Shown: positions 1 to 41,894 of the stretch, one piece after another
Layout: every line of letters starts with the position of its first letter
Position numbering within the stretch: position 1 is the stretch's first letter
From: an uncultured virus (IMG/VR IMGVR_UViG_3300008107_000123)
Lineage: Duplodnaviria; Heunggongvirae; Uroviricota; Caudoviricetes
Direction: 5' to 3' (one strand)
Length of the DNA: 64,000 nucleotides
Virus record (IMG/VR): IMGVR_UViG_3300008107_000123
Span: 1 to 64,000 of that record
Position numbers and translations under genes: made by a program
Notes under the pieces: model-generated
Told to the model about the DNA's origin: nothing
Database searches by the model: none
The model's input: only the letters and a program-made list of their open reading frames with translations

Positions 1-729
1 TCGAACGCTCGTCTTGCGATTTCTGGGACCAACTACCGGTTTGGCGACTTGGCGGCTGCCGGTCCTTTCCGTCAGTCGTTTGTCATTACACCATCTGCCG
101 GGTCTGTTACCGTCGCTGTCGAGTTCTTTTCTGCCGGAGGCGCGACCATCAACGGGAGCGGCGGCACTTACGGCGCAGGTAGCGCCTTCCTCCGCGTTTC
201 CAAGATCGTGCAGGCGACCCAATGGCCCGCCGTCACGACCGGGACCATCATCTGCACCTCAACCACGCGGCCAGCGAGTCCGTTTGTCGGGCAGAAGATT
301 TATGAGACTGACACTAAGAAAGAACTGACATACGACGGTGCTTCGTGGACGCAGCCGTGGAACCAGCCGTGGGGGGTTGTTGGTATTGGCACGCATGACA
401 CAGGCTTGCAGGTTGCGGCAAACACATCATTCTGTTCCGTGACCTTTAACCCCGTGCTCAACCGTTATTACCAAGCGTTTTATACGGAGCGCACCATCTG
501 GGCAACAGCAGGCACTATTGGAATCTTTGACTCTGTTGCAAGTGGAAGGATTGCGGAGCAGTATGGAGCACCTGATCCTGTAACGCTTCAGCGCACTAAG
601 ACGTTCAGCACTACGGCTTCACGCACTCTTTCTATTCGCTCTGATGGAGTGCAAACCCCTATCAGTGGTGCGTATTCTGGTAATGAGCGCCCCGCTCAGT
701 TGGTTGTCATGGACGTTGGCCCGGCTTAA
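1..729 (+). CDS. Tail fibre / receptor-binding protein, 5'-truncated by the window edge
   Basis: Frame is open from position 1; CTSTTRPASPFxGQxIYETDT fibre motif; homologous to 41894..42835. Confidence 0.7.
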   Translation, partial: SNARLAISGTNYRFGDLAAAGPFRQSFVITPSAGSVTVAVEFFSAGGATINGSGGTYGAGSAFLRVSKIVQATQWPAVTTGTIICTSTTRPASPFVGQKIYETDTKKELTYDGASWTQPWNQPWGVVGIGTHDTGLQVAANTSFCSVTFNPVLNRYYQAFYTERTIWATAGTIGIFDSVASGRIAEQYGAPDPVTLQRTKTFSTTASRTLSIRSDGVQTPISGAYSGNERPAQLVVMDVGPA

Positions 730-1263
730 GTGACGCTCCTCCTCCTCCTCACATCGAGTGGGGGTCCGAAGCCGGTAGAGGCAGCGGCGTCGGCCTCCAC
801 AACTCTGACAGCGGAACTACGTAGTCAGACCGTTCGCCCCGTTGCCGAGTGCAACGTGTTCTTCAACTCGTCTGCGGAACTGCGAAAGAGCATTGAAGTT
901 GCGGCAGCCGTCCTTGTTTCTTCTGCTTCTATAGCCGCAGAACTACGCAACGGAACAAAACTTTCTGCGTCAATCGTTCAAGCCAGCGCGTCACTATCTG
1001 CGTCGCTAACTAACGGAACAGAACTCGCTGCGTCACTCGTTGCTCTGTCGTCAGTTATCACCGCTGGGATTACTTCTGCCGGAAGTACGCCTTCTTCCGC
1101 TATCATAAATGCAGTCTCAACTGTTGCCGTAAGGCTTCCGGGTCGTGAGTACGGATCACCAGTAACGGCTGGTTCGTCACGCTCCGGTGCAGGGGGGACT
1201 CCCCCTGTTGGGTCTGGACGCTCTGGCGCAGGCGGAACTCCAACGCCCGGAAATGGGAGATAG
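730..1263 (+). CDS. Ala/Ser-rich putative virion protein
   Basis: N-terminus MTLLLLLTSSGGPKPV shared with 42832..43362; duplicated RSGAGGTP near the C-terminus. Confidence 0.6.
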   Translation: MTLLLLLTSSGGPKPVEAAASASTTLTAELRSQTVRPVAECNVFFNSSAELRKSIEVAAAVLVSSASIAAELRNGTKLSASIVQASASLSASLTNGTELAASLVALSSVITAGITSAGSTPSSAIINAVSTVAVRLPGREYGSPVTAGSSRSGAGGTPPVGSGRSGAGGTPTPGNGR

Positions 1264-1266
1264 TAA

Positions 1267-3498
1267 GTGGCTACCTCGTACAGCAATCTTTATCGCGGCA
1301 AGGGCGATGCTGCGTCCCGCCTTCAGCGTATGGTCGTTCAGGGCAAGGAGATCGCCAAGCAGGAGCGCACCCGCTGGCAGCAGAACCGCATGGTCTACCG
1401 TGGCGACCAGTGGTTCCGCCCCCGCCCCGGCGCTGGTTTTTCCTCTGGTCGGCTTGAAGTTCTTTCCGAGGGGGCTCGCGGACGTCGGCGGGATACGTTC
1501 AACCGACTGCGCCAAATGACGGATGGCCGCGTCTCTGTTCTTACCGCTTCCCGCCCGCCGTACGAAGTCATTCCCAAGACGCGGGATCAGGACGTTCTTG
1601 ACGCTGCTCGTCAGGCACAGAAGTTGATCGCCGCAAAGTGGGACGAGCAGGGGTGGAACGTCGGGGGGAACATCCGCGAACTCGTACTTACTGGCGAGAT
1701 TGACGGCGTTTCTTTCCTCAACGTGACGTTTGATCCGAACTGTGGGGAAGAGACGGTTATCTACGTTGCCCCAGACGGACAGCCGATCGCAACACGCGAG
1801 GCGTACGAAGCGGCGATCCAGCAAGACCCGGACGGTGGGACGCTTTGGATGGAGAAGCGTGTACGCATGGGGGAGATTATCTGGAGAGTTGTACGCCCCG
1901 GCGCGATTGCAACCGATCCATCCGCTACCCACTGGAAGGACACGAACTGGGTAATAGAGTCGAGAGTCCTCCCGAAGGCGAAGATCGAGTCAGATAACAA
2001 CATCCAGATCGACAAACTTCTCAACGATGAGAGGAGCAGGACCGGCGGGGCGAAGAACAACCCCGACCCAACCATCGGTCCTGTTGTAGCCGAGGATGAG
2101 GGGCAACTTACCGATCGGATAATCCCGGGCCGCGAGGAGTACATCGTCCACGAGATGTACATGAAGCCGAGCGCCGAGTGGCCTAAGGGTTGCCACTCTC
2201 GTTGGCTCGACCGCGCACCCGGGCAGCCTCTTCTTGTTGAGGAGTACCCGGACTATGACCTCCCGTATCGTCCGTTCAACCCGAAGCCTGACGGTGGCCA
2301 CTACATGCGCTGCCGCGGGACTGTCGATGAACTGCGCCCGATCCAGCAGCGCTTCAACAGAATCCTCTCGCTGCTCTCTGAATGGATGGAGAAGGTGGCT
2401 CGTCCGCCAGTTCTTGTTCCTGTTGGGGCGCTCCGTGGTCAGGAGTTGTACAACGAGAAGGGGTTTGCGGAAGTCCACCCCCTCGGCGACCCGCACTTCA
2501 TGCCGACTCCGAGCGAGCCTGTTGCGGTGCTGACCCAGCACCTCCAGTGGTGCGTTCAGCAGATGGCCGAGATTGCAAACCAGAGCGACGCTATCCGTGG
2601 AGTCCAGCCCGGAGGCGTGGAGTCTGCAATCGGTATTCAGGCACTAGCGCAGAACTCAGAAACTCAGTTGTCCGGAACAGCGTCTCAGGTCGCCTCGGTT
2701 ATCGAGTGGGGGCTTTCGCGCTCCCTCCGCCTCGTCCGTGACTACTACTCAATCCCCCGCCTTGTGCAGACTTCGGGAGTTGACAACTCGGAGGAACTGT
2801 CTGCGTTTGTCGGGGAGATGGTGCGGGACGCAGAGGATGTCCACATCACCGCGTCCATTCTCCCGAGAAGCCGTGCGCTCCAGTTCCAGACGCTTATGCA
2901 ACTTGCGCCGATCATCGGGAACGACATCCGACCGTATGTCGCTCGTTTCGTCGAGGGTTCTTACGACGAGTTCATTTCGTCTGAAACCGCACAGCGCGAC
3001 AAGCAGAAGCGCGAGAACCGTGCACTTGCTGCGCTTGGCAAGTTGGACGAGCGGGATCAGGTCTGGGCTGACTTCAGCCAGATTCAGGCCCAGTACATGC
3101 AGGCGTTCGCAATGGCATCGTCGCAGGGCGATCCGACCATCGCGCTTTCGATGGCCGGAATCCAGCCGCCCTCGGTTCTTCGCATGCTCCGAGACGCTGG
3201 GGTAAACATCCCAACTGTCGAGGATTACGACGACCACGCGATGCACCTTCGCGCCCTTGACCTGTGGCGGCTTAGCGACGGATACGACGCCATACATCCT
3301 CTTGTCAAGCAAGCCGCACGTGAGCACGCCACTGAACACAAGAAGATGCTTGAACAGCAACTTGTTTCGATGGGGAGCCAAACCCCACCGGATCAGGGTC
3401 CGCAGGGCGGTGGCTCTCCACCGGCACCTAAGGGCCAGCCCTCGCCGCCCAAGGAGAACAAGGGCGGACCACCAGCAACGATAGCGGGGACGATGTGA
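1267..3498 (+). CDS. Portal protein
   Basis: 743 aa, precedes scaffold and MCP, Q/P-rich tail; clear homologue at 43372..45666. Confidence 0.85.
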   Translation: MATSYSNLYRGKGDAASRLQRMVVQGKEIAKQERTRWQQNRMVYRGDQWFRPRPGAGFSSGRLEVLSEGARGRRRDTFNRLRQMTDGRVSVLTASRPPYEVIPKTRDQDVLDAARQAQKLIAAKWDEQGWNVGGNIRELVLTGEIDGVSFLNVTFDPNCGEETVIYVAPDGQPIATREAYEAAIQQDPDGGTLWMEKRVRMGEIIWRVVRPGAIATDPSATHWKDTNWVIESRVLPKAKIESDNNIQIDKLLNDERSRTGGAKNNPDPTIGPVVAEDEGQLTDRIIPGREEYIVHEMYMKPSAEWPKGCHSRWLDRAPGQPLLVEEYPDYDLPYRPFNPKPDGGHYMRCRGTVDELRPIQQRFNRILSLLSEWMEKVARPPVLVPVGALRGQELYNEKGFAEVHPLGDPHFMPTPSEPVAVLTQHLQWCVQQMAEIANQSDAIRGVQPGGVESAIGIQALAQNSETQLSGTASQVASVIEWGLSRSLRLVRDYYSIPRLVQTSGVDNSEELSAFVGEMVRDAEDVHITASILPRSRALQFQTLMQLAPIIGNDIRPYVARFVEGSYDEFISSETAQRDKQKRENRALAALGKLDERDQVWADFSQIQAQYMQAFAMASSQGDPTIALSMAGIQPPSVLRMLRDAGVNIPTVEDYDDHAMHLRALDLWRLSDGYDAIHPLVKQAAREHATEHKKMLEQQLVSMGSQTPPDQGPQGGGSPPAPKGQPSPPKENKGGPPATIAGTM

Positions 3499-3743
3499 GC
3501 GAGACTGAGAGGGGCTTCGGCCCCGGCTTCGAGAAGGACGTGGCAGCGATTCTTGCAACCGCTGACCGGGGACTTCTGTACGCCCGTGAGGTGAGGGAGA
3601 ACCTCGCACGGGCGGGGATGATTATCTACGACTCGGTAGAGATGCCAGACGTGGAGCCACCGCAGTACAACGATGATGTGGACGAACTCCAACTCATCAA
3701 CGACAACTACCCTGCCGACGAGGAGGACGCAGAGGATGAGTGA
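3495..3743 (+). CDS. Small acidic hypothetical protein
   Basis: VAAILxxADRGLLYxRExRENLAxAGMIIY conserved in 45670..45924. Confidence 0.75.
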   Translation: MSETERGFGPGFEKDVAAILATADRGLLYAREVRENLARAGMIIYDSVEMPDVEPPQYNDDVDELQLINDNYPADEEDAEDE

Positions 3744-4497: not shown

Positions 4498-4501
4498 ACT
4501 G

Positions 4502-4639: not shown

Positions 4640-5944
4640 TTGTCCCTTTATTCCGCGTCCTCCGCTTTTGCGAAGGATGTCTGGCTCCCGGGGCTGAACT
4701 ACGAACTGCTTGCTGAGCCCGGCACCCTGCTGGGCTGGCTCGGTTCGTACGCTGACAGCCGCGTGACCGTTGACATCGAGGGTCGCCGTTCGTACATCAA
4801 GTTGCGGATCGGTGACTCGCTCGGTCAGGGAACCATCGCTCAGGGCGGTAACTACCCCAACCCGGGTGACCCGACCTACGACGAGGCTTCCCTGAACCTC
4901 GCGCACCTTGCGCACGCCATCGACTTCACGATGGAGGAGATGGCACTTCTTGAGTCCACCGAGGCCGCTGCGGTCCCGATCATGGCCGAGAAGATGACCG
5001 CTGCTAAGGAGGCTATGTCCTCCGACATCGAGCGTCAGGCTTGGAGCGACGGTAGTGGTGTTCTTGCGAACGTCGCTTCGTCGTCGGGTTCGACGATCAC
5101 CCTCGACGCCACGACCTCATCGCAGGTGGATCGTGACCGTTACCTGTGGATCGACGACGCTAACCGCGCTCGTTACGACGTTGTGCACGGTACGACTGGC
5201 GCCCAGCAGGTTACGGGCTTCACCGTGTCGGACATCAACGAGTCCACCAACGTGCTTACCTGCTCGGCCTCGATGACCTCGGCCACCTCGGCTGGCGTTG
5301 TTGTGCGCAGCGGCACGTGGGCTTCCGGTGGTGCCTACAACTCTCTGGAGTTCGGCGGCATCAAGGCTGCGGTTGACAACAACAACACCTACATGGGTAT
5401 CGACCGCACCGCTTCGGGCAAGGGCTACTGGCAGGCCGTGGTCGCTGACAACAGCGGCACCCTGCGCCCCCTTACCGAGGAACTGATCCACGGAGTGATG
5501 AACAAGATCGCTCGCCGCGCTGGCCGCCAGCCCACTGGTGACTACGCTGCGTTCGCTTCGTTCGGTACGTACACCGCGTACCACCAGATCATCACCCCGG
5601 GCCTCCGTTACACGCTGGAGTCCACCCCGGACATCGGCTTCGGTCGCCCGCTGGAGATGCTCGGCGTCCCCATGTACCGTGGTGCCCGTTGTCCCCGCAA
5701 CAGCATCTTCGTGCTGAAGAAGGACAGCCTGAAGTTCGTTCGTCCGAAGCACAACAAGCCGGGCGACCTGCTGAACTTCGTCAACCTCGGCGGCTCGGAG
5801 TTCTTCCTGAAGAACGCTTCGAGCGGTCAGGGGCACAGCGCGTCAGTGGTTGCGTACCTCGACGGCTTCCTCGGAATGATGACGACGCGCCCGCGTGACC
5901 ACGCGGTTCTCGGCGACATCTCCGAGGTGGCGAGTACGTACTAG
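4640..5944 (+). CDS. Major capsid protein
   Basis: 434 aa, follows the scaffold gene, strongly biased codons; same length as and very similar to 46985..48289; TTG start. Confidence 0.88.
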   Translation: MSLYSASSAFAKDVWLPGLNYELLAEPGTLLGWLGSYADSRVTVDIEGRRSYIKLRIGDSLGQGTIAQGGNYPNPGDPTYDEASLNLAHLAHAIDFTMEEMALLESTEAAAVPIMAEKMTAAKEAMSSDIERQAWSDGSGVLANVASSSGSTITLDATTSSQVDRDRYLWIDDANRARYDVVHGTTGAQQVTGFTVSDINESTNVLTCSASMTSATSAGVVVRSGTWASGGAYNSLEFGGIKAAVDNNNTYMGIDRTASGKGYWQAVVADNSGTLRPLTEELIHGVMNKIARRAGRQPTGDYAAFASFGTYTAYHQIITPGLRYTLESTPDIGFGRPLEMLGVPMYRGARCPRNSIFVLKKDSLKFVRPKHNKPGDLLNFVNLGGSEFFLKNASSGQGHSASVVAYLDGFLGMMTTRPRDHAVLGDISEVASTY

Positions 5945-5946
5945 CG

Positions 5947-6357
5947 ATGGCTCTTACCGTCACGATCAACAAGACCGACACCGTTGGTCGTTACCTGAAG
6001 GTCAAGACCGGAACGGTGACGTTCGACTCGTCTTACCCCACTGGGGGTGAGTCGCTGTCGGCCACCGACCTCGGCTTCTCGACCAAGGTAGAAACCTTCG
6101 TGGCGTCGCCTAACGGTGGCCTCATCTTCGAGTATGACTTCACTAACTCGAAGTTGGAGGCTTTCTACCCCAGCGGCGGTGCGGCTACCCCGGCGGCTCT
6201 TGCAGCCCCGGCGGTAACTGTTCCGGCAGGGGCGACCACCGTGACGTCAAGCGCGGCACAGCCGAATCTTACTGAGACGGCTGGAATCGCGGCAGAGGTT
6301 GGTAACACCACCGACCTCTCGACCATCGTTACCAACTTCGTCGCCTTCGGGTACTAG
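5947..6357 (+). CDS. Putative capsid decoration / minor head protein
   Basis: Directly after MCP; FDSSYPTGGESL motif; near-identical to 48298..48708. Confidence 0.6.
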   Translation: MALTVTINKTDTVGRYLKVKTGTVTFDSSYPTGGESLSATDLGFSTKVETFVASPNGGLIFEYDFTNSKLEAFYPSGGAATPAALAAPAVTVPAGATTVTSSAAQPNLTETAGIAAEVGNTTDLSTIVTNFVAFGY

Positions 6358-15700: not shown

Positions 15701-16257
15701 TCGCCTTCGCTCAGGAAGCGTTGAAGCAGGCTGGCCCCCTCGTGTCCCTCCCGTCCGTCCTTCTAACTGGACGCTCTGCGCTGAACGTCGCCCCGCAGTT
15801 GAGCGGCGATCCCGAGTACGGGACCGACCCTGCATCTGGACGCACTTACGAGATGGACCCGATCAGTGGGCGACCAGTCGATGTTGTCCGTCCGCTTCCT
15901 CTAGACGCGATGGCAGAGAGTTACTTCCCGTTCCTTACGCCGCTAAAGAACCTTGCTGCTGGAACCAGAGGCAACGAGCGACTTGCTGCCGATGCGTCGT
16001 TCCTCGACATCGCTGCGAACCGTCTTGGCGGAGGCGACAGGGAGGACATCTTCCTGCCGAGGGGTCTTTACGGCCAGCCGATTGAGCGTTCGTGGGTCAC
16101 CGAACTAACCGGGTCGTTGTTGGGCGGGCCGGTCTATAAGTACAATCCTGAAAGCGCAGCAGCGCAGAAAATCCTCACGGACCAGAGGGCAGCGGACGCT
16201 TACGTTGCTTCGTTCAAGCGTCGCCTTCGTAACCGGGCTCTGCTGACAAGAGACTAA
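12712..16257 (+). CDS. Large internal virion / ejection protein
   Basis: 1181 aa; WKxxVLALxPRWY and RRxxPFYGWMR shared with 55226..59212. Confidence 0.6.
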   Translation: MAPETWLDKYFPKDKKRKQSGSKRPARFANAPERRAMDKRVRRAIELRLSQKVKAAIESAEPKEPDRGGVLGAIGDFTGGALGLGVNLLRDASQVIPGLSRQVYEGAKATTGMAAGSSPSLLTEALGYRPSFVKSAQKQGELVTDALISPYDQAKYFGGPLLEGDFGETGRRIYDNPLGAIGVASIVYPGVGGAVGAGLRGVGRATRGTRAGAAAERFGSKQTVRREGSLFPEEGPRPRRERPDEVITDPITGDSVVRQRRERSANILTREFQKYVADPAVGGIKKAVGKIPGSRNPLSPAKRAQRVSRKGTRELTYSMATQLDQSVLLGAEPWMRSVRQIPKTLGRGKKAKVAYATAAIRAMGLNNTSRTQTNRRWGIDGLTEQWTEWLGKVDDSTPKDAIKATEENIELLRQIPDEWLDPATAPRPLNELVRATERILSDATTLKVSAGAVTAKTAALSGRRAQYIAAGVYGNYLKARKSSEKADKRAAQLVTIAGDIANLRQSIATSKAAGRKATKKQERLAELQRKEKEVRRQENSNRKKADENTRVLNSTVDPEMKPGQYFPMKPAAKKLKGTRQGLGITAQLRVAKEKQNKGKVLRSGSASFAPDVVLSALKDATDVRLRSDTLSMIFARYAVKDGDGIPISEDAAVNLVRAHPELYVAMSKRDLVELIPSQEGRVAQKGLTELADDIDGTRYLLPKSVVNEWQGILGARSGAGKAIDDINAMWKAGVLALSPRWYTQNIFGNSLMFALGAGIDIQAIRMAFNPKYRDSVLADLAAHGNSSDLGELARKYGMKPDRNLIKRVVVAGYQINNRFESLFRRAIFHHVAKKKLKEEGMVKNWGNNSAVLADAWLTVATAAKNGEPWAMKLADQVRIESTRFLGEYVRYNSFERAILRRAYPFYGWMRTVMRLAFALPVKHPKRAGLIVVSSQMAYHMYNDEESEALNPYSGLVDEDMFIQTSILMPQETATPIIGGLGRLLGMAQRGDYAAMPVAFAQEALKQAGPLVSLPSVLLTGRSALNVAPQLSGDPEYGTDPASGRTYEMDPISGRPVDVVRPLPLDAMAESYFPFLTPLKNLAAGTRGNERLAADASFLDIAANRLGGGDREDIFLPRGLYGQPIERSWVTELTGSLLGGPVYKYNPESAAAQKILTDQRAADAYVASFKRRLRNRALLTRD

Positions 16258-17432
16258 TGGCAACGGGCATCCCGACATACGAGCAGTTCCGCCGCTCACT
16301 CGCTGGCACACCGATGGTGGGCGAGGCGAAGGGCATCTACAACGCTGCGATCGGAAGCGGCATCAACCCCGCTTTCGTTGCCGGGCTTGCTTCAGCGGAG
16401 TCGAGTTACGGGACAAAGGGTTACGCGAGGGGGACGAACAACCCGTACGGTCTTGGCGTTCACCTCGGGTGGACTTTCAAGAACTACAGCGAGGCTACGA
16501 GGCGGCTCGGAAAGACTCTGAACTCGCTTGGGTATCCCGGCCTTTACCGCGACCGGGGTCTTGCCGGGATCATCAGTAGGTACACGCCTGCGTCAGACGG
16601 TAACGACGAGGGCGCCCACTTCAGGAACATCATGTCTGGCGGGCGGAGGACCGGCGGCAACCCCGGGCAGGTTTATGTGCGCGGCGGAGTTGTCCCATCC
16701 ACCTCTGGCGCAGAGCCGAGCGTTGGGTCACCCCCCCCGTCAATGGGGGTAACCCGGCCGATGGCCGGGCAGGGAGGCGGAGCGGGTAGCGCGACGTTGC
16801 TAAAGCAACTCGTGAACCAGTACGTTCTGTCTAAGGCGGGCACGCTCACTCCAGAAGTCGCTAGGAAAACGACGTTGCAGATGGCGCGTGCCGCGGGAAG
16901 CGCCTTCGGGAAGTCCATGATGCCGCAGGCGTCAATGCCGGGCATCACGCCTGATTATGGTGGCGGAGGGTCTATCGACGAACGCAGCCCGTCGCCCGCT
17001 GAGTCTACGTCTACGCCGATACTCCGTATCCCGGGGCAGCCGAGGCTTAGGGCTAGCGGAGGACCCGGTGGAGGAACCCACAGTTTCAAGGAACGTGGGT
17101 ACAGTTGGTTCGACGACATGGCGTACGATCTTTTCGCTGGCTCGGGGACGCCGATCACCACACCCCTGACGGGACGAGTGAAGAACATCAGCGGCCAGCC
17201 CGGGGGGGACGCGAGGTTCGCCGGGTATGGCGTGACCGTCGATTACGGCGGTGGAAGGCAAGCGTTCTTCAAGCATCTCGGCGCACTGGGGCCGAAGATC
17301 AAGATCGGCGCCACCATCCCGCGCGGGACTCTTATCGGCGGGCTCGACAGGGCGACGGCGGGTGGACCCCACCTCCACCTCGGAGCGACTAACCGTGGTT
17401 TTCTCGAACAGATTTTGAGTTACTACAAGTGA
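16257..17432 (+). CDS. Peptidoglycan hydrolase: lysozyme/glucosaminidase-like N-domain plus M23 peptidase C-domain
   Basis: GINPAFVAGLASAESSYG...NNPYG; AYDLFAGSGTPI...HL...GPHLHLG. Confidence 0.75.
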   Translation: MATGIPTYEQFRRSLAGTPMVGEAKGIYNAAIGSGINPAFVAGLASAESSYGTKGYARGTNNPYGLGVHLGWTFKNYSEATRRLGKTLNSLGYPGLYRDRGLAGIISRYTPASDGNDEGAHFRNIMSGGRRTGGNPGQVYVRGGVVPSTSGAEPSVGSPPPSMGVTRPMAGQGGGAGSATLLKQLVNQYVLSKAGTLTPEVARKTTLQMARAAGSAFGKSMMPQASMPGITPDYGGGGSIDERSPSPAESTSTPILRIPGQPRLRASGGPGGGTHSFKERGYSWFDDMAYDLFAGSGTPITTPLTGRVKNISGQPGGDARFAGYGVTVDYGGGRQAFFKHLGALGPKIKIGATIPRGTLIGGLDRATAGGPHLHLGATNRGFLEQILSYYK

Positions 17433-17665: not shown

Positions 17666-18352
17666 ATGAAAGTGAACCCTGCATGGGTTGTGCGCAAGAA
17701 GCGCATGAAGGTGTGGGCAGAGGCTAACGGCGTCATCGTTCCGAGGGGGCTCCGCATGACCCCCTACTGCGGGACTGCCTGCCGCGACCTCATCCGGCGC
17801 ATCCAGATCAAGGGTGGCCTGACGTACAAGGATGGCAAGTGGCGGAACGACATCAAGCGTCTCGTCGCACCGCGCCCAACCATCCAGTCAAAGGCCGTCC
17901 GCATCGCCTTTACGCAGGAGGGGGTGAAGGAGCACCCGGCAGGTTCCAACTCTGGGCCGAGGGTCAGGGAGTATCAGGCTTCGACATCGCTCGGCGGGAC
18001 GGGGTGGCCGTGGTGCGCAGCATTTTGTTGCTGGGTGTATCGCGGTGCAGGAAAGCGGTTTGTCGGGTGGAACACGGCTTACGTGCCTGAGTACGTGAGC
18101 ACGGCTAAGTCTCGCAAGCACGGGCTTTCCGTGGTTAGCGCGGCGAACGTGATACCGGGTGACCTTGCCTGCTTCGATTGGCAGGGTGATGGAGAGTGCG
18201 ACCACATCGGCATCGTGGTTACGAAGGTACGCAGCGGTGGTTTCCAGTGCATCGAGGGCAACACCTCGTATAGCAATGACAGCAACGGCGGACAGGTGAT
18301 GCTGCGCGACCGGAACATCAACTCGGTCGGCTGCTTCATTCGCGTCAGTTAG
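17666..18352 (+). CDS. Endolysin, CHAP amidase/peptidase domain
   Basis: PWCAAF (Cys), DHIGIV (His) and IEGNT motifs. Confidence 0.85.
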   Translation: MKVNPAWVVRKKRMKVWAEANGVIVPRGLRMTPYCGTACRDLIRRIQIKGGLTYKDGKWRNDIKRLVAPRPTIQSKAVRIAFTQEGVKEHPAGSNSGPRVREYQASTSLGGTGWPWCAAFCCWVYRGAGKRFVGWNTAYVPEYVSTAKSRKHGLSVVSAANVIPGDLACFDWQGDGECDHIGIVVTKVRSGGFQCIEGNTSYSNDSNGGQVMLRDRNINSVGCFIRVS

Positions 18353-22223: not shown

Positions 22224-22700
22224 GTGGACGACGTAAGAGAATGGGCCTTGCGCTACGCAGGGCGGGGATGGAAGGTCATCCCGCTTCATGGGATAGATGA
22301 CGACAACAACTGCACGTGCAGGCTGAAGGGCGAGTGTGACAGCCCGGGTAAGCACCCGTACTGGCGCGACTGGCCGAACAAGGCGAGCGACGACCCAGAG
22401 CAGATTGCTATGTGGTTCGACGGGACTACGCCGAGGAACATCGGCATCGTGTGCGGAGCGTCGAACCTCGTGGTGATCGACATCGACGACGAGGGCGGCG
22501 AGGCGATGGTTCTCCCGCTTATGGAGGTCGGGATAATCCCCGCCTGCCCGCAGGTTCGTACTCGCAGGGGCGTTCACCTGTACCTGACAGGGAGCGTGCC
22601 CGCTGCGAAGTTGCGTGGCATCGACATCAAGAGCGGTAACGGTTTCGTGGTGGCACCGCCGTCACGACGTGTGGATGGCGGGTACTACGAATGGGTGTGA
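22224..22700 (+). CDS. Bifunctional primase-polymerase (Prim-Pol) domain
   Basis: ALRYAGRGWKVIPL, PGKHP, NIGI, LVVIDID, GVHLY and GFVVAPPS motifs. Confidence 0.88.
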   Translation: MDDVREWALRYAGRGWKVIPLHGIDDDNNCTCRLKGECDSPGKHPYWRDWPNKASDDPEQIAMWFDGTTPRNIGIVCGASNLVVIDIDDEGGEAMVLPLMEVGIIPACPQVRTRRGVHLYLTGSVPAAKLRGIDIKSGNGFVVAPPSRRVDGGYYEWV

Positions 22701-26429: not shown

Positions 26430-28433
26430 CTAATGAGCCCGCATCATCGAGCGAATCAGGTCGCCGAGGACGCGCGGGATTGCGGCGAGGTCACGCGCCG
26501 TCGAGTAGAACTCGTGGTAGTCAGGGACGACGGGCTGAAGCCCGACCTTCCGTGAGATACCGATCCCGCCCGTGATGATGCCGTTCTTACGGGCGATGTC
26601 GATCTCCTCGGCCACCGTGTGCCTGTTGTTCGGGTGCCCGTCCGTGAGTACCACGATGAGAGGCTGCTCCGCACCACGGTTGAGCGATGCGTTGCGTGCC
26701 CAGATGATGCCGCTCGTCTCGTCCGTGCCACCCCCCGAACCCATCGACACGTGGTCGAGCAGCCGGTAGAAGGAACCGTGCTGACGCGCTGTCGCGTCGA
26801 ACGGGATAGCGGCGATCGGGCCGTGCCCCCCATACGCCGCAACCGCAACGTCCAGCCCGTGTATGCCCTCGCTCGCTCGCTTGATCGAAAGACCGGCGTT
26901 GGCAATCGCGTTACCGCATGCGCCACGTACGGAACTTGACGCATCGAGCAGAAGCACGAGAGAGAAGTCTCGTGCGCCACGTGGACCCTGCTTGGTGCGG
27001 AACACACGTGTGTCGCCGAGCGCAAGCCTGCTCGAACTCTTGACGTCGAACGAACCGCGCCGCCTGCGACCAGCGTACGAACCGTCTGCGTTGTGCTGAA
27101 GCACACGGTTCAGTTGCGATCGGACAACGCGAGACGTCGTTACGACAGCGTTCTCACGCCCGTTGACGTCGTATGACTGCCCCTCATGGCCGATGAAAGA
27201 ACCGTCCATGAAGGCGTCGTGCGTGTCGCGCGGTGCACGCTCGATGTCCTGCCGCTCCTTATCCCACTCACCACGTGGACGGTCGGGGCGCATGGGCTCG
27301 TCGTCATCGTCGTCCAACACGCCGTCGCCACCCTCAACGCCGCCGTGGCTGGTGCCGCTCTCCGTTGAGTCGCCGCCACCCTCGCCGCCGCCACCGTCGT
27401 CGCCACCGTTGCCACCCTCCTGCTCGCTGTCGCCTTCCTCCTGCTGCTCCTCTCCGTCCTCTCCGTCGCTCTCCTCGTCGTCGTTACCCTCCTGCTCGTC
27501 GCCGCCGACGCCAGCCTGCTCGTCGCCGTCGTCGTCCTGCTCCTGCTCACCCCCGTTACCGCCCTGCTCGCCACCCTCCTGCTCGCCACCCTCCTGCTCG
27601 CCACCCTCCTGCTCGTCGCCGTCCTCCTTGCGCTCGTCGTCATCCGGCTCGCCGCCACCGCCACCGCCGCCACCAACGGGCGGGAAGAGCGGCTGCATCG
27701 CTACGTAGACGGGCTCCAGCGCATCGAGCAACGCCTGAGTAGACGGCGTGTCGCACGCTGCGAGGAAGTGCGGGAGAGCGTCGTTGAAAGCGGCACGCTC
27801 CAGCCCCGAGAGGCGGGATACGAACTCGTTCGCACGGCTAGGGATGCAGCGTGTCGAGTAGAGAGCGAGCCCCACGTGACGGAGCGCATCCATCTGGTCG
27901 TACTGGTGGACGTTGCCCATAAGCAGGCGCTCGTTCTCAATCGAGCGCAGCGCAGCGAACACGGGAACCTCCTGCTCACCAGCGTCCTCGATACGAACGT
28001 CCTCCGTCATGTTGAGGATGCCGAAGAAGTCCTGCCAATGCGCACGTTCGCACCAGTCGGGGCGCTCAACCCACCCGGTGAAGAGAACGTGGAACAACTC
28101 GTGCAGCAACGTGGTAAGCGCCTCACCACGCATGATCGCTGACATCCCGCCGTGCGACGCCGAGACGGTAAGCGACGACCAATGCACGTGGTACACCTTC
28201 GTGCCCTGCGCACGCTCGATGTCAACGGCCCACGTTCCGCCGACGTTGTGGTGAAGGACGATCCTTGCGTGGTTGCCCAACACCGCGCTTGCGGTGGAGG
28301 CAATCTCACGCTCCGCTGCTGTACGTGCAGCGACAACGGAACCGTACGAGTGACCGAGAAGCGGCTCGCCCCACCGTGCGGGGTCGCTTGCGAGCGTACC
28401 GCCGATGGTCGGTGCCTGTGCCTGTGTAGTCAT
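26430..28433 (-). CDS. vWA-domain protein with N-terminal HExxH domain and acidic linker (CobT-like MoxR partner)
   Basis: Start MTTQAQ; LLHELFH, NxxEDVRIE, D/E/G-rich linker, MIDAS LLLDASSS, GGGT and VVLTDGxP. Confidence 0.85.
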   Translation of the reverse strand: MTTQAQAPTIGGTLASDPARWGEPLLGHSYGSVVAARTAAEREIASTASAVLGNHARIVLHHNVGGTWAVDIERAQGTKVYHVHWSSLTVSASHGGMSAIMRGEALTTLLHELFHVLFTGWVERPDWCERAHWQDFFGILNMTEDVRIEDAGEQEVPVFAALRSIENERLLMGNVHQYDQMDALRHVGLALYSTRCIPSRANEFVSRLSGLERAAFNDALPHFLAACDTPSTQALLDALEPVYVAMQPLFPPVGGGGGGGGEPDDDERKEDGDEQEGGEQEGGEQEGGEQGGNGGEQEQDDDGDEQAGVGGDEQEGNDDEESDGEDGEEQQEEGDSEQEGGNGGDDGGGGEGGGDSTESGTSHGGVEGGDGVLDDDDDEPMRPDRPRGEWDKERQDIERAPRDTHDAFMDGSFIGHEGQSYDVNGRENAVVTTSRVVRSQLNRVLQHNADGSYAGRRRRGSFDVKSSSRLALGDTRVFRTKQGPRGARDFSLVLLLDASSSVRGACGNAIANAGLSIKRASEGIHGLDVAVAAYGGHGPIAAIPFDATARQHGSFYRLLDHVSMGSGGGTDETSGIIWARNASLNRGAEQPLIVVLTDGHPNNRHTVAEEIDIARKNGIITGGIGISRKVGLQPVVPDYHEFYSTARDLAAIPRVLGDLIRSMMRAH
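27563..27615. repeat. 15-bp tandem repeat, 3 copies (encodes EQEGG)
   Basis: gccaccctcctgctc at 27570, 27585 and 27600. Confidence 0.85.
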
Positions 28434-28455
28434 AACTACCTCGCTCTCTGCCTGT

Positions 28456-29307
28456 CTAGGCGTTGTCGTCGTCGTTAGACGGCTTGGTGTAGAGGAACTC
28501 CGTGAAGTCCGAAAGCCTGTAGCGCGTGCTCTTCCCGCACTTGCCGTTCTCGTGCAGGAAACCGGACTCATGGAGGCGTGCAACTGACGCACGAACCTGT
28601 GCCCGGGTGAGCGTCACGCCGAACTCCGACTGGATGAGTTCGACGATCCCCCACCCGGTCGTCCCGTAGTTACCGGCGTCGTGCATGGGGGTGTACTTAC
28701 GGACGTTCTCGATGGTGAACCCGATGTACATCTGCTCGCTGTCCGCGAGGTTGCGTGCCTCGGCGTCGGCGTGACCGGCCTCCGTCCTCGTCTTGTATAC
28801 GAAGTCGCGGGTAGCGGAGTGCTTCTTACGCACGGCTATCTGCACGGCGAGGTCAACGAGCCCGGGGTCGATACGAGGCGGGCGCTTGCGGTCGGGGTCT
28901 TGCGCCGCAGCGTCGGCTGCGACACGGTACTCATCGAGGTGCGACTGCAACTCGTTCGCCTGCTCATTCATGCGCAGTGCTGACACGTCACCGTAGATGC
29001 CGCCCTCCTGCGCCACGACCACCATGCTCACGGTCGGGATGTCCGTGCCCGTGTTGGGAACAGACGAGAACGAGCGGTCGGGGTCATGCTCACCGTCGCT
29101 AGGCGCAGGGTCGGGAGCATCGTCCTCCTGTGGCGCCGTGTACGGGGCCACGTACTCCTGCTCTGCCTCCTGCTCGGGCGCCTCCGCTACCTGCTGCGGC
29201 TGCTCCGCTGCTGCCTCTGCCGCCTTACGTGCGGCCTCGAACGCACCGATGATGGCCTGCGCGTCGGCGACGCTGACGCCATCGGGAATCTCGAACGTAA
29301 CTTCCAT
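28456..29307 (-). CDS. Hypothetical protein with acidic N-terminus and possible C-terminal winged helix
   Basis: LTRAQVRASVARLHESGFL...RYRL; lies between the MoxR and vWA genes. Confidence 0.6.
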   Translation of the reverse strand: MEVTFEIPDGVSVADAQAIIGAFEAARKAAEAAAEQPQQVAEAPEQEAEQEYVAPYTAPQEDDAPDPAPSDGEHDPDRSFSSVPNTGTDIPTVSMVVVAQEGGIYGDVSALRMNEQANELQSHLDEYRVAADAAAQDPDRKRPPRIDPGLVDLAVQIAVRKKHSATRDFVYKTRTEAGHADAEARNLADSEQMYIGFTIENVRKYTPMHDAGNYGTTGWGIVELIQSEFGVTLTRAQVRASVARLHESGFLHENGKCGKSTRYRLSDFTEFLYTKPSNDDDNA

Positions 29308-29333: not shown

Positions 29334-30455
29334 CTACGAGAGGGGCAGGCCGTCATCGCCGACGGCGAACATCGCCATCACGTTGCGGACGGGCTGCCGC
29401 TCGTCGGGAGGGAACTTGGCGATGAGCGCACGCTCGGCTGCCTCGCTCCACGTGTAGCAACCGGAGTCCATCGCCTCTGCCCACGTTGCGAGTGAGCGGA
29501 AGCCGATCGGGTGCATGATGTCCTGCGCATCGCGGATGCGCTTGGCGACCTCGCACATTGTCTTAGCAACGGACGGGTCGAGCGTGGGGATGAGCGACTG
29601 CAACGCAAGCGCCTCGTCGATCGGGTCCGGGTAGTCGATCGTCGGCGTCCACTGAAGCCGGTTCTCGAACGCCGGGTCCAACTCGTTCGTACCTACGTAC
29701 TCGTGCGGCGGGTTCGCCGTCGCCACCAGCACAAGGTCGCCACGGTCGATCGTCTCGCCCGTGGGCAGGGTGAGCCGTGCCGTGCCGTCAAGCAGCGGCA
29801 TGAGCGCGGCGTACTCGTTGACGTCACGGATACGGTTGATCTCGTCGATGAGCAGGACAGTCGGACGGTCGTGCGAGATACGCGCAGCCGTTGCGATCTG
29901 CCTGTCATGCCACTTGATCGTGGGCGCACCCGTCTGGTCGTGAGCAGCGGGCAACTGCGTGCCAACCATCGTGTCCTCGTTAGCGCCCGGGGTAACGGAC
30001 ACGATCACGAGGTTCCACCCGAGCATGGACGTAAGCCATTCGATGCTGGCCGTCTTGCCGCACCCCGTGGGGCCGAACACGATCGTGTTCGTGCGGCTAC
30101 GGAGGGCGTACATGATGTCGTAGAGGTACGAATCCTGCCCCACGAGGGGGCGTGCGCCCGGTGACGGGGACGCAGGCGTTCCCGGCTCCTTCGCAATGGT
30201 GATGCGGGGCTTGTTCGGGAGGTCGGAGTGGACGCTGGCGGCGTCGTCGCTGATACCCGAGCCCGTGCCCTGCTGCGGGGTTGCGCTGTCACGGGTGAAG
30301 TAGACGGGGGTGGTCGTGTTGCTCAACGTGCTGGGCAGGTCGATCAACACGTTGCCATTCACGCCGACCGTCACTGCGAGAACGTCACCCCCGTCCACGG
30401 ACAGCACCCCACGGTCGGGGTTGCTCGTGTCGGGCATGAGAGTGATGCTAGGCAT
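29334..30455 (-). CDS. MoxR/CbbQ/CobS-type AAA+ ATPase
   Basis: GPTGCGKT, LLIDEINR, VATANP and LDPAFENR; start MPSITL after AAGGAG. Confidence 0.88.
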   Translation of the reverse strand: MPSITLMPDTSNPDRGVLSVDGGDVLAVTVGVNGNVLIDLPSTLSNTTTPVYFTRDSATPQQGTGSGISDDAASVHSDLPNKPRITIAKEPGTPASPSPGARPLVGQDSYLYDIMYALRSRTNTIVFGPTGCGKTASIEWLTSMLGWNLVIVSVTPGANEDTMVGTQLPAAHDQTGAPTIKWHDRQIATAARISHDRPTVLLIDEINRIRDVNEYAALMPLLDGTARLTLPTGETIDRGDLVLVATANPPHEYVGTNELDPAFENRLQWTPTIDYPDPIDEALALQSLIPTLDPSVAKTMCEVAKRIRDAQDIMHPIGFRSLATWAEAMDSGCYTWSEAAERALIAKFPPDERQPVRNVMAMFAVGDDGLPLS

Positions 30456-30507
30456 AGTGGTGGTACTCCTTGCTCGTGGTTTCCCGGCTGGTTGCCGGAC
30501 TGAAAAC

Positions 30508-30547
30508 ACCGTAGCAGTCCAAGAATCCCCTGCTAATCGGCACTTTT
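30508..30547 (-). promoter_or_regulatory. Early promoter P1
   Basis: AAAAGTGCCGA-TTAGCA-17 nt-TACGGT. Confidence 0.75.
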
Positions 30548-33580: not shown

Positions 33581-35038
33581 TTACGCCCTCATGCGCTGCA
33601 AATCCGCAGTTCCCGGTGCAACGAGCCCAGAATCCATGTATTCCCGCCACTTCCCGGTGTCCGCGTACTCCCGTGGCGGCGGAGAAACCATCAGCGCGTA
33701 CTCCAAAGCGTCGAGTCGGTGGTCGTCCTTCTTGATTCGCTCGTCCGGACGGTCACGATCGACCCTCGAAGCCGGTCGGTAACGCGCTGAAGTGATCGAG
33801 TCGATGAGTCCAGCGCACCTACGGCAGATAACGAGGGCAGGGTGCGCCCCGTCCCGCCTGATGAGACGCGAAGCGAGCAACTGCGCAAGCCGCTGGTCGC
33901 GGATTCCCTGCCTCTTGCCCTTATCGCACGGAGAGATGAAGATTCCCTGCCGCGCGTACTCCTCCATGTATGACCCTGACGCCCCTCGTGCGCGTCCCGC
34001 GGGGTCGCCGACCGCCATAATCTCCTTCAGGCCGTACCGAGCGCGTATCTGGCGGACATTCTTTGCGTGTTCCGATGGTTCCAACTCCGCGACGCCGTAA
34101 TCGGCGAACACAACGATGGGATCTTCGCCTTCTTCGTCCACCGCCATCCAGATGACCGCAGTTTCGACCGCGCGTCCGAAGTCCCACCCCTCGATAATCA
34201 ACTTCCCCTTCAGCGATTCGGGCGGAACATCGTCGATGATGTGGATGTTCTCGTCGAACTCGGTGAAAACCTGCCCCTCGAAGGCTCCCCAGTCGCCACG
34301 TACGTAGGCAGCGTGCCTTGCCCCCGTAAATCGCTTCTTGATTTCTTCCACATACTCCGGTGGAAGGTATGGATTTTCGTCGGTCCTCGCCGCGAACACC
34401 TCGAACCCCTCAGAGCGCTTACCACGAACACCCGGAGGAACGAAGTTCTTGCGGATGAAGTTGGAAGGGCCGGGGTTACACGTAACCCAGATGCGGAGGG
34501 GGCCGGAAACGCGGACTTCGACGGGCTTGCCGCCGATGATCTGCGTAGAGACGGTCTTGCCATTGGGATTCGGCGTGCCACGCAGACGGCCAGCGCCGAG
34601 CATCTCATAGACTTCATCAGAGATTTCGGAGCCCTCGTCTAGGTAAACCCAGTCAGGCTCGACACCGAGGAAGTTCTGCTCGCTTTTAGCGTTTCGGAAC
34701 ATAATCTCGGAACCGTTCCAAAACTTGACATGAGGCGGAGCAGATGCGGCCTTACCGCCCGTAACTTTCACGAGCCCAGCCTCGACGAGCCCGGTCATGT
34801 CCAACTCGCGGAGAAAAGTCCTCCACGTTGAGTCCATCAGCGGGCGGTATTCCTTACGCCCGATGATCCCCAGCGAGTTCGGGTACTCGATTGCGGTGCG
34901 GATGGCCTCACGCGAACCCGCCTTCGTCTTACCTGCGCCCACCGCGCCCGCGTACAGACGCCACTTACTCGTTGACTTGTGAAAAGCCTCCTGCGCTGGC
35001 AGCGGGTTATACCCGGACCAGATGTCTACTTCTGACAA
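33581..35038 (-). CDS. terL: Terminase large subunit
   Basis: YAGAVGAGKT Walker A, VYLDEG Walker B, VTCNP, ENPYLP, GWDFG, VGDPAG and DDHRLDALEYA nuclease motifs. Confidence 0.93.
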   Translation of the reverse strand: MSEVDIWSGYNPLPAQEAFHKSTSKWRLYAGAVGAGKTKAGSREAIRTAIEYPNSLGIIGRKEYRPLMDSTWRTFLRELDMTGLVEAGLVKVTGGKAASAPPHVKFWNGSEIMFRNAKSEQNFLGVEPDWVYLDEGSEISDEVYEMLGAGRLRGTPNPNGKTVSTQIIGGKPVEVRVSGPLRIWVTCNPGPSNFIRKNFVPPGVRGKRSEGFEVFAARTDENPYLPPEYVEEIKKRFTGARHAAYVRGDWGAFEGQVFTEFDENIHIIDDVPPESLKGKLIIEGWDFGRAVETAVIWMAVDEEGEDPIVVFADYGVAELEPSEHAKNVRQIRARYGLKEIMAVGDPAGRARGASGSYMEEYARQGIFISPCDKGKRQGIRDQRLAQLLASRLIRRDGAHPALVICRRCAGLIDSITSARYRPASRVDRDRPDERIKKDDHRLDALEYALMVSPPPREYADTGKWREYMDSGLVAPGTADLQRMRA

Positions 35039-39591: not shown

Positions 39592-39842
39592 TCGCTGCAA
39601 TCGTAATCCTCGGCGTCACTACCGTCGTCAACGGCGGGCTTGCCGCGTTCATCTTCTTTATGGGCCAGCGCGAGCGCGTCTCGCTGCTTGACCGTATTCA
39701 GGCGCCCGAGGCGGCGCGGATGGCGTCTGTCGTTCAGACGCTCGACTCTGTTCCGACCGCTGAGGAAGCGGAGACTCTGGTCGGAATCAACGTCCCGTGG
39801 GACGACGACCTCCGCATGATCCTGTCCGAGGAGGACAACTAA
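39588..39842 (+). CDS. Small membrane-anchored protein
   Basis: Start MIAAIVILG in an ATGA overlap; N-terminal TM segment. Confidence 0.6.
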   Translation: MIAAIVILGVTTVVNGGLAAFIFFMGQRERVSLLDRIQAPEAARMASVVQTLDSVPTAEEAETLVGINVPWDDDLRMILSEEDN

Positions 39843-40121
39843 ATGTCTGTCACCACATCCAACGTCACCGTTGGAACGACGGCGACGCTGCTTTGTGGGA
39901 CTGACCCGAAGCGTCGTCGCCTGTACATCAAGAATGTCCATTCCAGTAAGGCGTACATCGGACCCCTCGGAGTCACGACGGCCAACGGTTTCCACGTTGG
40001 CGTTGACGAAACCATCGTGATCGAGAACTCGCACCCCGCCGACGGATCTGCGAAGAACGCCTACTACGCCGTTCTCGGCTCTGGCTCCGGCACGGTATCG
40101 GTCATGGAGATCACTGACTGA
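39843..40121 (+). CDS. Small beta-rich virion protein (putative)
   Basis: VTVGTTATLL..RRRLYIKN..YIG..GVTTANGF pattern. Confidence 0.55.
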   Translation: MSVTTSNVTVGTTATLLCGTDPKRRRLYIKNVHSSKAYIGPLGVTTANGFHVGVDETIVIENSHPADGSAKNAYYAVLGSGSGTVSVMEITD

Positions 40122-40534
40122 TGGCTTCCGGACTTAGCGACTACTTCGAGAACCAAGTTCTTGGAAAGATTTTCGGAAACCAGACGCTCACCGTTCCGGG
40201 CACGTACTACATCGGACTCTGGACGGCCACGCTCTCGGACTCGTCAACTGGATCGACCGCAGGCGAGCCATCTGGCGGTTCCTACGCTCGTGTCTCAGTT
40301 ACGAACAGCGGGTCAAACTGGGACGCTGTATCGGGTGGCGCGACCGCTAACACGAACCTGATCGCGTTCCCCCTTGCGACTACCTCGTGGGGCACGGTCA
40401 CTTATGTCGGAATCTGCGACGCGCTCACGGCGGGCAACATGATTGCTTACGCACAGTTGACTACCCCGGTCAGCGTTGCACAGTACGACACCGTGCTGTT
40501 CCAGCCCGGTGACCTTGACATCACGCTTACCTAA
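40121..40534 (+). CDS. Conserved tail/fibre-associated protein
   Basis: LSDYFEN, YIGLWT, GGSYARV, IAFPxATxSWGTVT and DALTAGN motifs. Confidence 0.65.
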   Translation: MASGLSDYFENQVLGKIFGNQTLTVPGTYYIGLWTATLSDSSTGSTAGEPSGGSYARVSVTNSGSNWDAVSGGATANTNLIAFPLATTSWGTVTYVGICDALTAGNMIAYAQLTTPVSVAQYDTVLFQPGDLDITLT

Positions 40535-40545
40535 GGCGGTCAGCG

Positions 40546-41894
40546 ATGGCAGATGACGTAACCCTCAACTCAATGAGCGGCGGCGCTGTCGTCGCCACCG
40601 ACGACTCGGGCACTGGTCACGTACAGATCGTCAAACTGGCGTACTCCGCTGACGGTGATCGCACGCACATCCCGGCTACTGCGGCCGGTCTTGCGGTCAT
40701 CGAGCGCGGAACAACGATTGACAGCACCTCCGCATCTGTGACCACGACCTCGGGCCAGATCGTCGCTTCGTCGGCCACTCGCCGCACCATCGTATCCCCG
40801 AACCCGGTCGGTTCGCTACAGGCATACGCAGGTGCGTCGGCCCCGTCTGGCTGGCTGCTGTGCGACGGAACCTCGTACTCAACCTCCGTGTACCCCGAGT
40901 TGTATTCGGTACTGGGCTACACCTACGGCGGGTCGGGCGCGAACTTCAACGTGCCCGACCTTCGTGGTCGCGCCCCGATTGGCGCGGGAACAGGAGCGCA
41001 GAACGGCGGCAGCGGGTCCGGCGCTATCAGCGGCGGGACCGCGCTTACCGCAAGGGCGCGAGGCGCGTTCGGTGGCGACGAGCGGCTTCAGTCGCACACC
41101 CATATTTCACCGGGGCAGAACCTTGCGACACTTTATAACTCGGGTGGTTCTCCACTACAGGGTTGGAACGCTCCCGGTGTAGACGGATTGTCTAACTCAA
41201 CTACCGACCATTCGCGCACTGGCAAGGGTTCCGGCGAGAATATGCCCCCCTTCCTCGTCACCAACTACATCATCAAGGCGATCCCCGACGCCCCGCGCTC
41301 CGGTCTTGCCTACGGGTCCACTCCCCCGATTGTCACGGCGCTGCCCGCGAACCCGCAGTTCGGTGATGTCGTCACTTACATCGCAGACGCCACGAACGGC
41401 GTTGCGTGGAACCTTCAGTACGACGCGAGCGGAACGTACCCGTGGAAGTTCATTGGGGGTGCGCCGCTGCTGAATACGGTCGCTGCCAGTGAGTCAACGG
41501 CCAATCCGAGTTACGTCGCACTTACAACTGCCGGTCCACAAATCACGGTACCTGTAGCGGGCGACTACGACGTTCTCATCGGCTGCAACTTCAACGGCGG
41601 CGCNNNNNNNNNNNNNNNNNNNNNNNNNNCGGCTGCAACTTCAACGGCGGCGCAGGCAACGACATTCCGGGAGTGATGTCGTTCCTCGTTGGCGGAACCG
41701 CAGCGTCGGATAGTGACGCCGTGTGGATTTCGACGCGAGGACCAGGCTACGACTCAACGATAAGCAAGCCAAGCCGTAAGACAGGCATCGCTGCCTCGAC
41801 CGCGCTAGTGGCTCGGTACAAGTCACCTGCCTCTGCGGGGATGATCTTTGGCCAACGCTTTATGCGTGTAACCCCAATCCGAGTGAGCGCCTAA
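40546..41894 (+). CDS. Tail fibre protein with tail-collar domain (one ORF once the gap artefact is removed)
   Basis: PVGSLQAYAG..APSGWLLCDG..YPELYSVLG..FNVPDLRGR..NMPPFLVTNYIIK; collapsing the 24-bp duplication joins it in frame to 41673..41894. Confidence 0.75.
41580..41653. other. Scaffold gap (26 N) flanked by an exact 24-bp duplication
   Basis: cggctgcaacttcaacggcggcgc at 41580-41603 and again at 41630-41653. Confidence 0.95.

Follow-up and report, generated by a model that had tools for sequence, protein, structure and literature searches.

Broad absence of restriction-type words from a podovirus-like phage genome that shares a virus record with a temperate relative

Two related phages in one record

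The DNA studied here (the window) is the first 64,000 bases of a 68,267-base uncultured virus record, IMG/VR IMGVR_UViG_3300008107_000123 (Caudoviricetes). A run of 26 N at positions 41604-41629 joins two separate phage contigs within this one record. The first, genome A (1-41603; 41,603 bases, 61.0% guanine plus cytosine (GC)), is a near-complete podovirus-like phage contig. The second, genome B (41630-68267 of the record, of which 41630-64000 lie in the window; 26,638 bases, 65.0% GC), is a related phage that we predict to be temperate. Our subject is a set of about 27 short restriction-type motifs that are missing or nearly missing from genome A, and whose loss we attribute to avoidance of host type II restriction enzymes. 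A preliminary description of the sequence had pointed to four of them; it also put the GC content of A near 63%, somewhat above the measured value.

Because the two sides of the N-run are syntenic duplicates with 65-86% nucleotide identity in alignable segments (79% for the capsid genes), the record must be seen as combining two related but distinct phages rather than as one genome. This is a warning for users of the record, since completeness estimates that treat it as a single genome are misleading. Relatives of 41.3-43.9 kb bear direct terminal repeats, and the size of A (41.6 kb) therefore fits a whole genome. No terminal repeat of at least 11 bases was found in contig A. Both contig ends (1-729 and 40546-41603) interrupt open reading frames (ORFs), the 3' one being a tail-collar fibre gene, and the 5' gene is shorter than its copy in B by about 62 codons. 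The assembly of A probably broke inside a variable fibre region.

The ORFs of A were annotated with a Pfam scan of 32 ORFs and a PHROGs scan of 52. The 5'-truncated gene (1-729, + strand) is followed by a P22-like portal (1267-3498, identified in these scans), the major capsid gene (4640-5944, + strand; PHROG major head protein, E 2e-29) and a gene at 5947-6357 (+ strand) with 91% amino-acid identity to its B orthologue. Further along lie an M23 peptidase domain (16257-17432), a CHAP lysin (17666-18352), PrimPol and a primase-helicase (22224-24145), the terminase large subunit (33581-35038, − strand), which served to fetch and orient relatives, and fibre proteins (40121-41601). The early region also holds a VWA-domain protein and an AAA_5 ATPase (26430-28592 and 29334-30509, both − strand), a CobT/CobS- or MoxR-like pair that carries the PHROG label 'porphyrin biosynthesis'. 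No tRNA genes were found in the window.

Six-frame searches of A with three DNA methyltransferase families (PF00145, PF01555 and PF02086) gave no matches, and neither did the Pfam and PHROGs scans, though no search was aimed at base-hypermodification genes. The earlier statement that no methyltransferase is recognisable in A thus holds. Neither a tyrosine integrase nor a serine recombinase was found in A, no restriction-endonuclease family was matched among its 32 (Pfam) or 52 (PHROGs) scanned ORFs, and 30 of the 52 ORFs had no PHROG match.

Words missing from genome A

None of the four words of the preliminary description (AGCT, CCWGG, CTCGAG and GGATCC, the recognition sequences of AluI, EcoRII/Dcm, XhoI and BamHI) occurs in 1-41603. 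Their first copies in the window lie at 42856, 41742, 43588 and 44640, respectively, exactly where they had been reported. Palindromes were counted against Markov and codon-shuffled expectations, as the preliminary description had proposed. The codon shuffle was synonymous and used a curated set of genes that covers 93% of A, with 100 shuffles for the four words and 200 for a wider scan. All four words proved to be far below expectation. AGCT, for which more than 100 copies in about 42 kb had been anticipated, is expected 147 times from base composition, 125 times from a maximal-order Markov model and 141.4 ± 8.8 times from the codon shuffle (lowest shuffle 120). The corresponding Markov and codon-shuffle values are 92 and 117.5 ± 8.1 (lowest 99) for CCWGG, 14.0 and 13.9 ± 3.3 (lowest 5) for CTCGAG, and 5.3 and 9.4 ± 2.8 (lowest 3) for GGATCC. 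No shuffle gave zero copies of any of the four. For GGATCC, the Poisson chance of finding none when 9.4 are expected is about 8e-5, which withstands correction for 64 six-base palindromes.

The avoided set is much larger than four words. The wider scan, which also covered degenerate patterns and 280 interrupted palindromes, found about 27 motifs at or below roughly 15% of the codon-shuffled expectation; most are palindromic and a few are asymmetric or interrupted. Among the short words (observed/expected) are AGCT 0/142, CCWGG 0/118, TTAA 2/45, ATAT 4/29 and AATT 0/22. The six-base palindromes comprise GCGCGC 1/32, GCCGGC 0/23, TCGCGA 0/19, GTCGAC 0/19, CTGCAG 2/14.6, ACGCGT 1/14, GGGCCC 0/13, AGGCCT 0/11, CCATGG 1/9.9 and AACGTT 0/9.2; TTCGAA (0/7.6) and ATCGAT (0/6.9) are also absent, but their expectations are smaller. 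The interrupted palindromes are GACN3GTC 0/23.1, GACN6GTC 1/17.8, CAGN3CTG 1/15.0, TCCNGGA 0/14.7, GGGNCCC 0/13.8 and CCAN5TGG 0/12.2, and the non-palindromic words are GAAGAC 0/26.6, GAGACC 0/25.9 and GAATGC 0/12.6, which are type IIS recognition words.

Two of the enzyme labels in the preliminary description are too narrow, since wider motifs that contain the XhoI and BamHI words are depleted as a whole. CTYRAG stands at 5/43.9 (CTCGAG 0/13.3, CTCAAG 4/22.8, CTTAAG 1/7.9) and RGATCY at 3/38.0 (GGATCC 0/9.5, AGATCT 0/4.9, AGATCC 3/23.6). Depletion is only partial for CGGCCG (6/24), GGCC (166/255) and GGWCC (56/108). Two other palindromes exceed their codon-shuffled expectation in A: CACGTG (30 vs 16.4, z +4.8) and TACGTA (16 vs 7.6, z +3.5).

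The surviving sites are scattered over A, with one exception. Both TTAA copies (446 and 726, in the 5'-truncated gene) and two of the four ATAT copies (41102 and 41240) are in the contig-end tail-fibre genes. This location would be compatible with fibre sequence having been acquired recently from a phage subject to another pressure.

We assessed the specificity of the depletion with all words that had a shuffled mean of at least 8, counting as depleted those at or below 10% of expectation. Among 4-mers, 3 of 16 palindromes are depleted in A compared with 0 of 120 non-palindromes; for 6-mers, depletion affects 12 of 31 palindromes compared with 36 of 1624 non-palindromes. Moreover, 33 of these 36 non-palindromic 6-mers contain AGCT, CCWGG, TTAA or ATAT, and the other three are GAAGAC, GAATGC and GAGACC. 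A general codon or dinucleotide bias cannot yield such palindrome-specific depletion.

The sites were removed by context-dependent synonymous codon choice. When Lys, Gln or Glu is encoded in A by a codon ending in AG, a following Leu is never CTN and is TTR 48 times; when the same residues are encoded by NAA codons, a following Leu is CTN 61 times and never TTR. Across all other contexts in A, 693 Leu codons are CTN and 57 are TTR. Similarly, the Ser codon AGC occurs 225 times in A before other codons but never before a codon starting with T, and the Ala codon GCT is never preceded by a codon with A as its last base. For CCWGG, Pro CCA or CCT is never followed by GGN, and NCC never precedes TGG or AGG, against 95 cases with synonymous NCD codons. 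In B all of these codon combinations are present except Pro CCA before GGN, of which there are none.

The same recoding is seen at orthologous positions, where 5298 codons of A and B could be aligned and 2806 encode the same residue. A synonymous alternative on an unchanged peptide is found in A for 12 of 49 AGCT, 7 of 44 CCWGG, 4 of 12 CTCGAG and 2 of 8 GGATCC sites of B; the other B sites lie where the peptides differ or where the codons could not be aligned. The three examples given in the preliminary description are all exact and in frame. Lys-Leu in the capsid gene is AAGTTG in A (4799) and AAGCTC in B (47144; B capsid gene 46985-48289, + strand). Lys-Leu-Glu in the 5947-6357 gene is AAGTTGGAG in A (6151) and AAGCTCGAG in B (48502, in the orthologue at 48298-48708). 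Val-Gln-Ala in the 5'-truncated gene is GTGCAGGCG in A (208) and GTCCAGGCG in B (42287). Both the codon-context counts and the orthologous positions thus bear out the earlier claim of synonymous avoidance in A.

These results leave little room for a cause unrelated to restriction, whether codon or dinucleotide bias, avoidance of AT-rich sites bound by a nucleoid protein, or an assembly artefact. TTAA is low in most of the relatives described below and in Microbacterium phage Shocker, and part of its depletion could be a general high-GC trait. However, the codon-shuffled and Markov nulls, which keep such biases, still expect 125-147 copies of AGCT, and non-palindromic 4-mers are undepleted. For words such as ATAT, AATT and CCCGGG, relatives of equal GC content differ in an all-or-none manner. 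An artefact is opposed by six separate assemblies that agree on the absence of AGCT and by a contig that is unbroken across all places where sites were expected. We regard a cause of this kind as scarcely credible.

Genome B and the uncultured relatives

Word counts in B were made on the whole contig and compared with the codon shuffle. The preliminary description had B using all four words freely. This is accurate for CTCGAG (17 vs 19.8) and GGATCC (11 vs 9.8), which are at expectation, but AGCT (61 vs 84.7, z -4.9) and CCWGG (55 vs 111.7, z -7.7) are reduced. The whole AGCT deficit is due to the absence of GAGCTC (0/12.1) and CAGCTG (0/9.0), while CCWGG is reduced in all eight flank classes, slightly so in two. 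B also has avoided words of its own (observed/expected): GWGCWC 0/28.4, CGTACG 0/17.2, CGATCG 1/13.9, YACGTR 0/13.6, AGCGCT 0/10.6, AGGCCT 0/9.1, CAGCTG 0/9.0, GAGACC 0/20.7, CACGTC 0/16.1, CACGAG 1/14.6 and TTAA 1/18.8. A reaches or exceeds expectation for several of these words (CACGTG 30 vs 16, CGTACG 26, CGATCG 24). GATC (191 vs 158.8, z +3.8) and CATG (115 vs 97.6, z +3.0) exceed the codon-shuffled expectation in B. With at least ten avoided motifs of its own and a half-depleted CCWGG, B is no neutral comparator for A; its depletion is nevertheless not equal to that in A, whereas the preliminary description had said that equal depletion would count against its claim.

The gene content of B also differs from that of A. 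A CI-like repressor lies at 62965-63708 (− strand; Pfam Phage_CI_repr, E 1e-05, 26.2 bits vs a cut-off of 22), and beyond the window the record encodes a tyrosine integrase (65643-66662, − strand; PF00589, E 1.4e-13) and a C5 methyltransferase (67284-68234, + strand, equal to L024:5284-6234; PF00145). None of the three genes was found in A. Judged by its integrase and repressor genes, B is predicted to be temperate. No attachment site or prophage copy of B was found, and a tRNA-like site beside the integrase was absent at E values up to 1.

In six-frame searches of the record and of four relatives (G001-G004), PF00145 matched only in the B part, and PF01555 (N6/N4) and PF02086 (D12) matched in none of the five records. 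Among the genomes searched, the C5 methyltransferase is confined to B-type genomes, namely B, its 99.8% twin G006, G008 and the G011 contig. In B, the match (161 bits) is limited to profile positions 4-164, the 3' portion of the gene lies out of frame, and contig B ends 33 nt after the methyltransferase stop. The homologue in G008 is full length (PF00145 positions 4-321, with motifs IX-X present). The catalytic core (motifs I-VIII) of both can be aligned to M.HhaI, and the target-recognition region of G008, about 190 residues, is unusually long and has no match among solved structures. Near the contig end, the B gene shows two similar segments in different reading frames, which suggests either a duplicated recognition module or a frameshift; the loci concerned in the B clade are record 67284-68234 and L031:1234-2754. 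We considered whether the B enzyme is a CpG- or AGCT-specific shield and rejected this, as B avoids CG-containing words as well as GAGCTC and CAGCTG.

Relatives were collected with two scans of one viral collection, using the capsid protein and its alignment, which gave 13 related loci, and with a scan of species genomes using the capsid alignment, which gave two contigs from metagenome-assembled genomes (MAGs). In the resulting capsid-gene tree of 15 rows, A groups with G001, L030, G003, G005 and G002 (support 100/99), and B with L027, L028 and L029 (support 100/100). Of the rest, L033 pairs with L034 and L008 with L009, and G004 stands alone. Three of the four genomes G001-G004 have terminal repeats. 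Each of the four encodes a small resolvase-type serine recombinase in an open frame of 244-268 amino acids, without counterpart in A (G001:C1:24340-24786, G002:C1:18271-18714, G003:C1:26523-26966 and G004:C1:39974-40423). For this reason we call only A 'without recognisable lysogeny genes'.

The avoided-word states are all-or-none and track the capsid-gene tree. AGCT is absent from all six A-clade genomes, which come from separate records, and is present in the remaining relatives. CCWGG, GCCGGC, GTCGAC, CTCGAG and GGGCCC are each at 0-1 copies in the A clade and in G004. Further words mark smaller groups: only G002, G003 and G005 lack CCCGGG (28 copies in A), only G002 and G003 lack GGCGCC, CASTG is reduced (5/99) only in G001, and CTSAG is at 0-1 only in L008 and L009. 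GACGTC is 0 in G001 and 2 in G004. A, G001, G005 and G002 have no TCGCGA, of which G003 and G004 have 18-30 copies, and AACGTT is 0 in A, with 11-17 copies in G001, G002, G003 and G005. ATAT is purged only in A (4/29) and G001 (0/32), and G002-G005 are at expectation. We know of no characterised restriction enzyme for ATAT, and its purge in A and G001 may mark an undescribed specificity. The set avoided by B is common to seven further B-type stretches, which include L027-L029 and the MAG contigs L033, L034 and L035.

This variation bears on the possibility that phage A encodes site-specific nucleases that destroy host DNA, and therefore lacks their targets itself and needs no methyltransferase. 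Chlorella viruses carry their own restriction enzymes, and the many ORFs of A without PHROG match, together with its lack of a methyltransferase, would suit such an arrangement. However, a 41.6-kb genome would have to encode many nucleases to account for about 27 motifs, no restriction-endonuclease family was matched when the ORFs of A were scanned with Pfam and PHROGs, and the avoided sets vary among relatives of conserved gene order. We consider self-avoidance very improbable.

The relatives also bear on why A and B differ. The preliminary description had supposed that B has another host or another countermeasure. The second part is borne out to the extent that B carries a C5 methyltransferase along with the genes of a temperate phage. 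The difference could nevertheless come mainly from hosts with different restriction repertoires, rather than from lysogeny or the methyltransferase of B. B lacks words that A keeps (CGTACG 0 vs 26, CACGTG 0 vs 30, CGATCG 1 vs 24), the B-type set recurs in the seven further stretches, three of them MAG-binned contigs, and G004 tolerates AGCT without a methyltransferase. On the other side, the C5 methyltransferase is found only in B-type genomes among those searched, and the genomes that have it tolerate GCCGGC, GTCGAC, CTCGAG and CGGCCG, which the six A-clade genomes and G004 avoid. An effect of lifestyle is also compatible with different hosts, and both can hold together. We give different hosts as the main cause slightly less than an even chance.

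Restriction avoidance, hosts and known systems

We infer that host restriction enzymes were the selective agent, and that genome A is a case of classical restriction-site avoidance against host type II enzymes, with a probability of about 0.85. Under this explanation, the DNA of phage A would enter each new cell unmodified, and every host type II target would be a liability. Selection over time would have removed such targets almost wholly via synonymous choices that depend on the neighbouring codon. Related lineages would each have removed partly different sets, reflecting the restriction specificities that they met. In B, both periods as a prophage and methylation by its own enzyme may lower the pressure, such that many words purged from A were kept while its own set is still absent.

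The host is likely to be an actinobacterium. A megablast search of both halves of the record against a phage collection found no close cultured relatives. The nearest cultured matches are all distant, and most of them are phages of actinobacteria. The sole cultured match of the capsid is Cellulosimicrobium phage DS1, at 23.7% identity. Five of the six records matching the portal come from Cellulosimicrobium, Microbacterium or Arthrobacter phages, and five of the seven matching the CHAP lysin come from Actinomyces or Bifidobacterium phages. The terminase matches are a mixed set of 247 records in which Arthrobacter is foremost with 63. One B-type contig of 5.5 kb was binned in a 'Candidatus Nanopelagicales' MAG (sampled contigs 0.59-0.68 GC), in which it may have been co-binned. 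Another was binned in an unclassified MAG (sampled contigs 0.68-0.76 GC), where co-binning is suspected, and a further 27-kb contig of that MAG has a non-integrated gene order. A prophage search of 390 genomes of the Nanopelagicales order returned the capsid in the same MAG and one 29% match, neither of which was shown to be a prophage.

Several observations weigh against the restriction-avoidance explanation or limit its reach. The searches led to no host, and hence to no cognate restriction enzyme for any motif. In samples of about 62 kb and 88 kb from the two MAGs with B-type contigs, no matching palindrome depletion was seen, though restriction genes were not screened in these MAGs; because hosts methylate their own DNA, these samples are weak evidence either way. 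G004 lacks the three searched methyltransferase families and yet has AGCT at 50/136, and a methyltransferase is therefore not the general reason for tolerance of AGCT. B avoids C-containing words (CGATCG, CGTACG and AGCGCT), which means that protection by its methyltransferase is incomplete. Among the many unmatched ORFs of A, there may be a novel enzyme for DNA modification or a protein that counters restriction. A and G001 can be aligned over only 17749 of 41603 nt, at 77.6% identity, and this distance allows nothing to be said on the speed of switching. A claim of rapid switching of avoided sets was accordingly rejected, the genomes being 22-28% diverged where alignable. Finally, about 27 specificities exceed the likely load of one strain, which points to a pressure summed over strains and time.

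This last point also affects what can be read from the avoided words. The preliminary description had treated them as the fingerprint of a host. Restriction avoidance is right in kind, but a single host is too hopeful, as some 27 specificities are unlikely in one strain. The avoided words of A are more likely a record of the combined specificities that a host population as a whole has presented over time. A bolder and rather doubtful idea is that the avoided-word sets are barcodes of the pooled type II repertoire of an uncultured actinobacterial host population. If so, they may include specificities for which no characterised enzyme is known to us, such as that for ATAT, and phages would be assigned to hosts without culture by comparing the sets with the motifs methylated in co-occurring MAGs.

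The mechanism is already known and the phenomenon is frequent; this is not a new mechanism. What stands out is its breadth in one small genome and the clean all-or-none mosaic across the family, in which at least 15 related phage genomes differ in the words that they avoid. A methyltransferase-free genome is moreover paired with a temperate, methyltransferase-bearing relative, and one record with a shared gene backbone would thus hold two anti-restriction strategies, that of the apparently virulent A and that of the temperate B. The family is a good test set for linking phages to hosts via restriction and methylation motifs, and can be used to ask about the number of restriction specificities that a single phage lineage faces in a natural host population.

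A literature search on site avoidance in actinobacterial phages found no paper on the topic. A similar purge is seen in Cellulosimicrobium phage DS1 (AGCT 8/214; 17 six-base palindromes that do not exceed 10% of expectation), Microbacterium phage Shocker (13 such palindromes) and Arthrobacter phage Jasmine (7 such palindromes; CCWGG 3/75). These three phages are the nearest cultured matches of the portal (19-23% amino-acid identity), and all of them lack CTCGAG, GGATCC and GCCGGC. They differ from A in being very distant and in encoding a DNA polymerase, DS1 also tRNA genes, neither of which was found in A.

The methyltransferases of B and G008 resemble the orphan C5 methyltransferases that phages use for self-protection in being PF00145 enzymes. 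They differ in that the B gene looks frameshifted and in the recognition region of G008, which is unlike solved structures.

The closest parallel to the contrast between A and B is in the work of Rusinov et al. 2018 (PMC6286503), which reports that elimination of orthodox type II sites is stronger in non-temperate than in temperate phages, and credits methylation during the prophage period for this difference. In genome A, the number of avoided motifs (about 27 in 41.6 kb) is large, and asymmetric and interrupted words are among them. It resembles the phages of that study in the complete elimination of sites, which is stronger in A, with no lysogeny genes recognised, and weaker in the temperate B.

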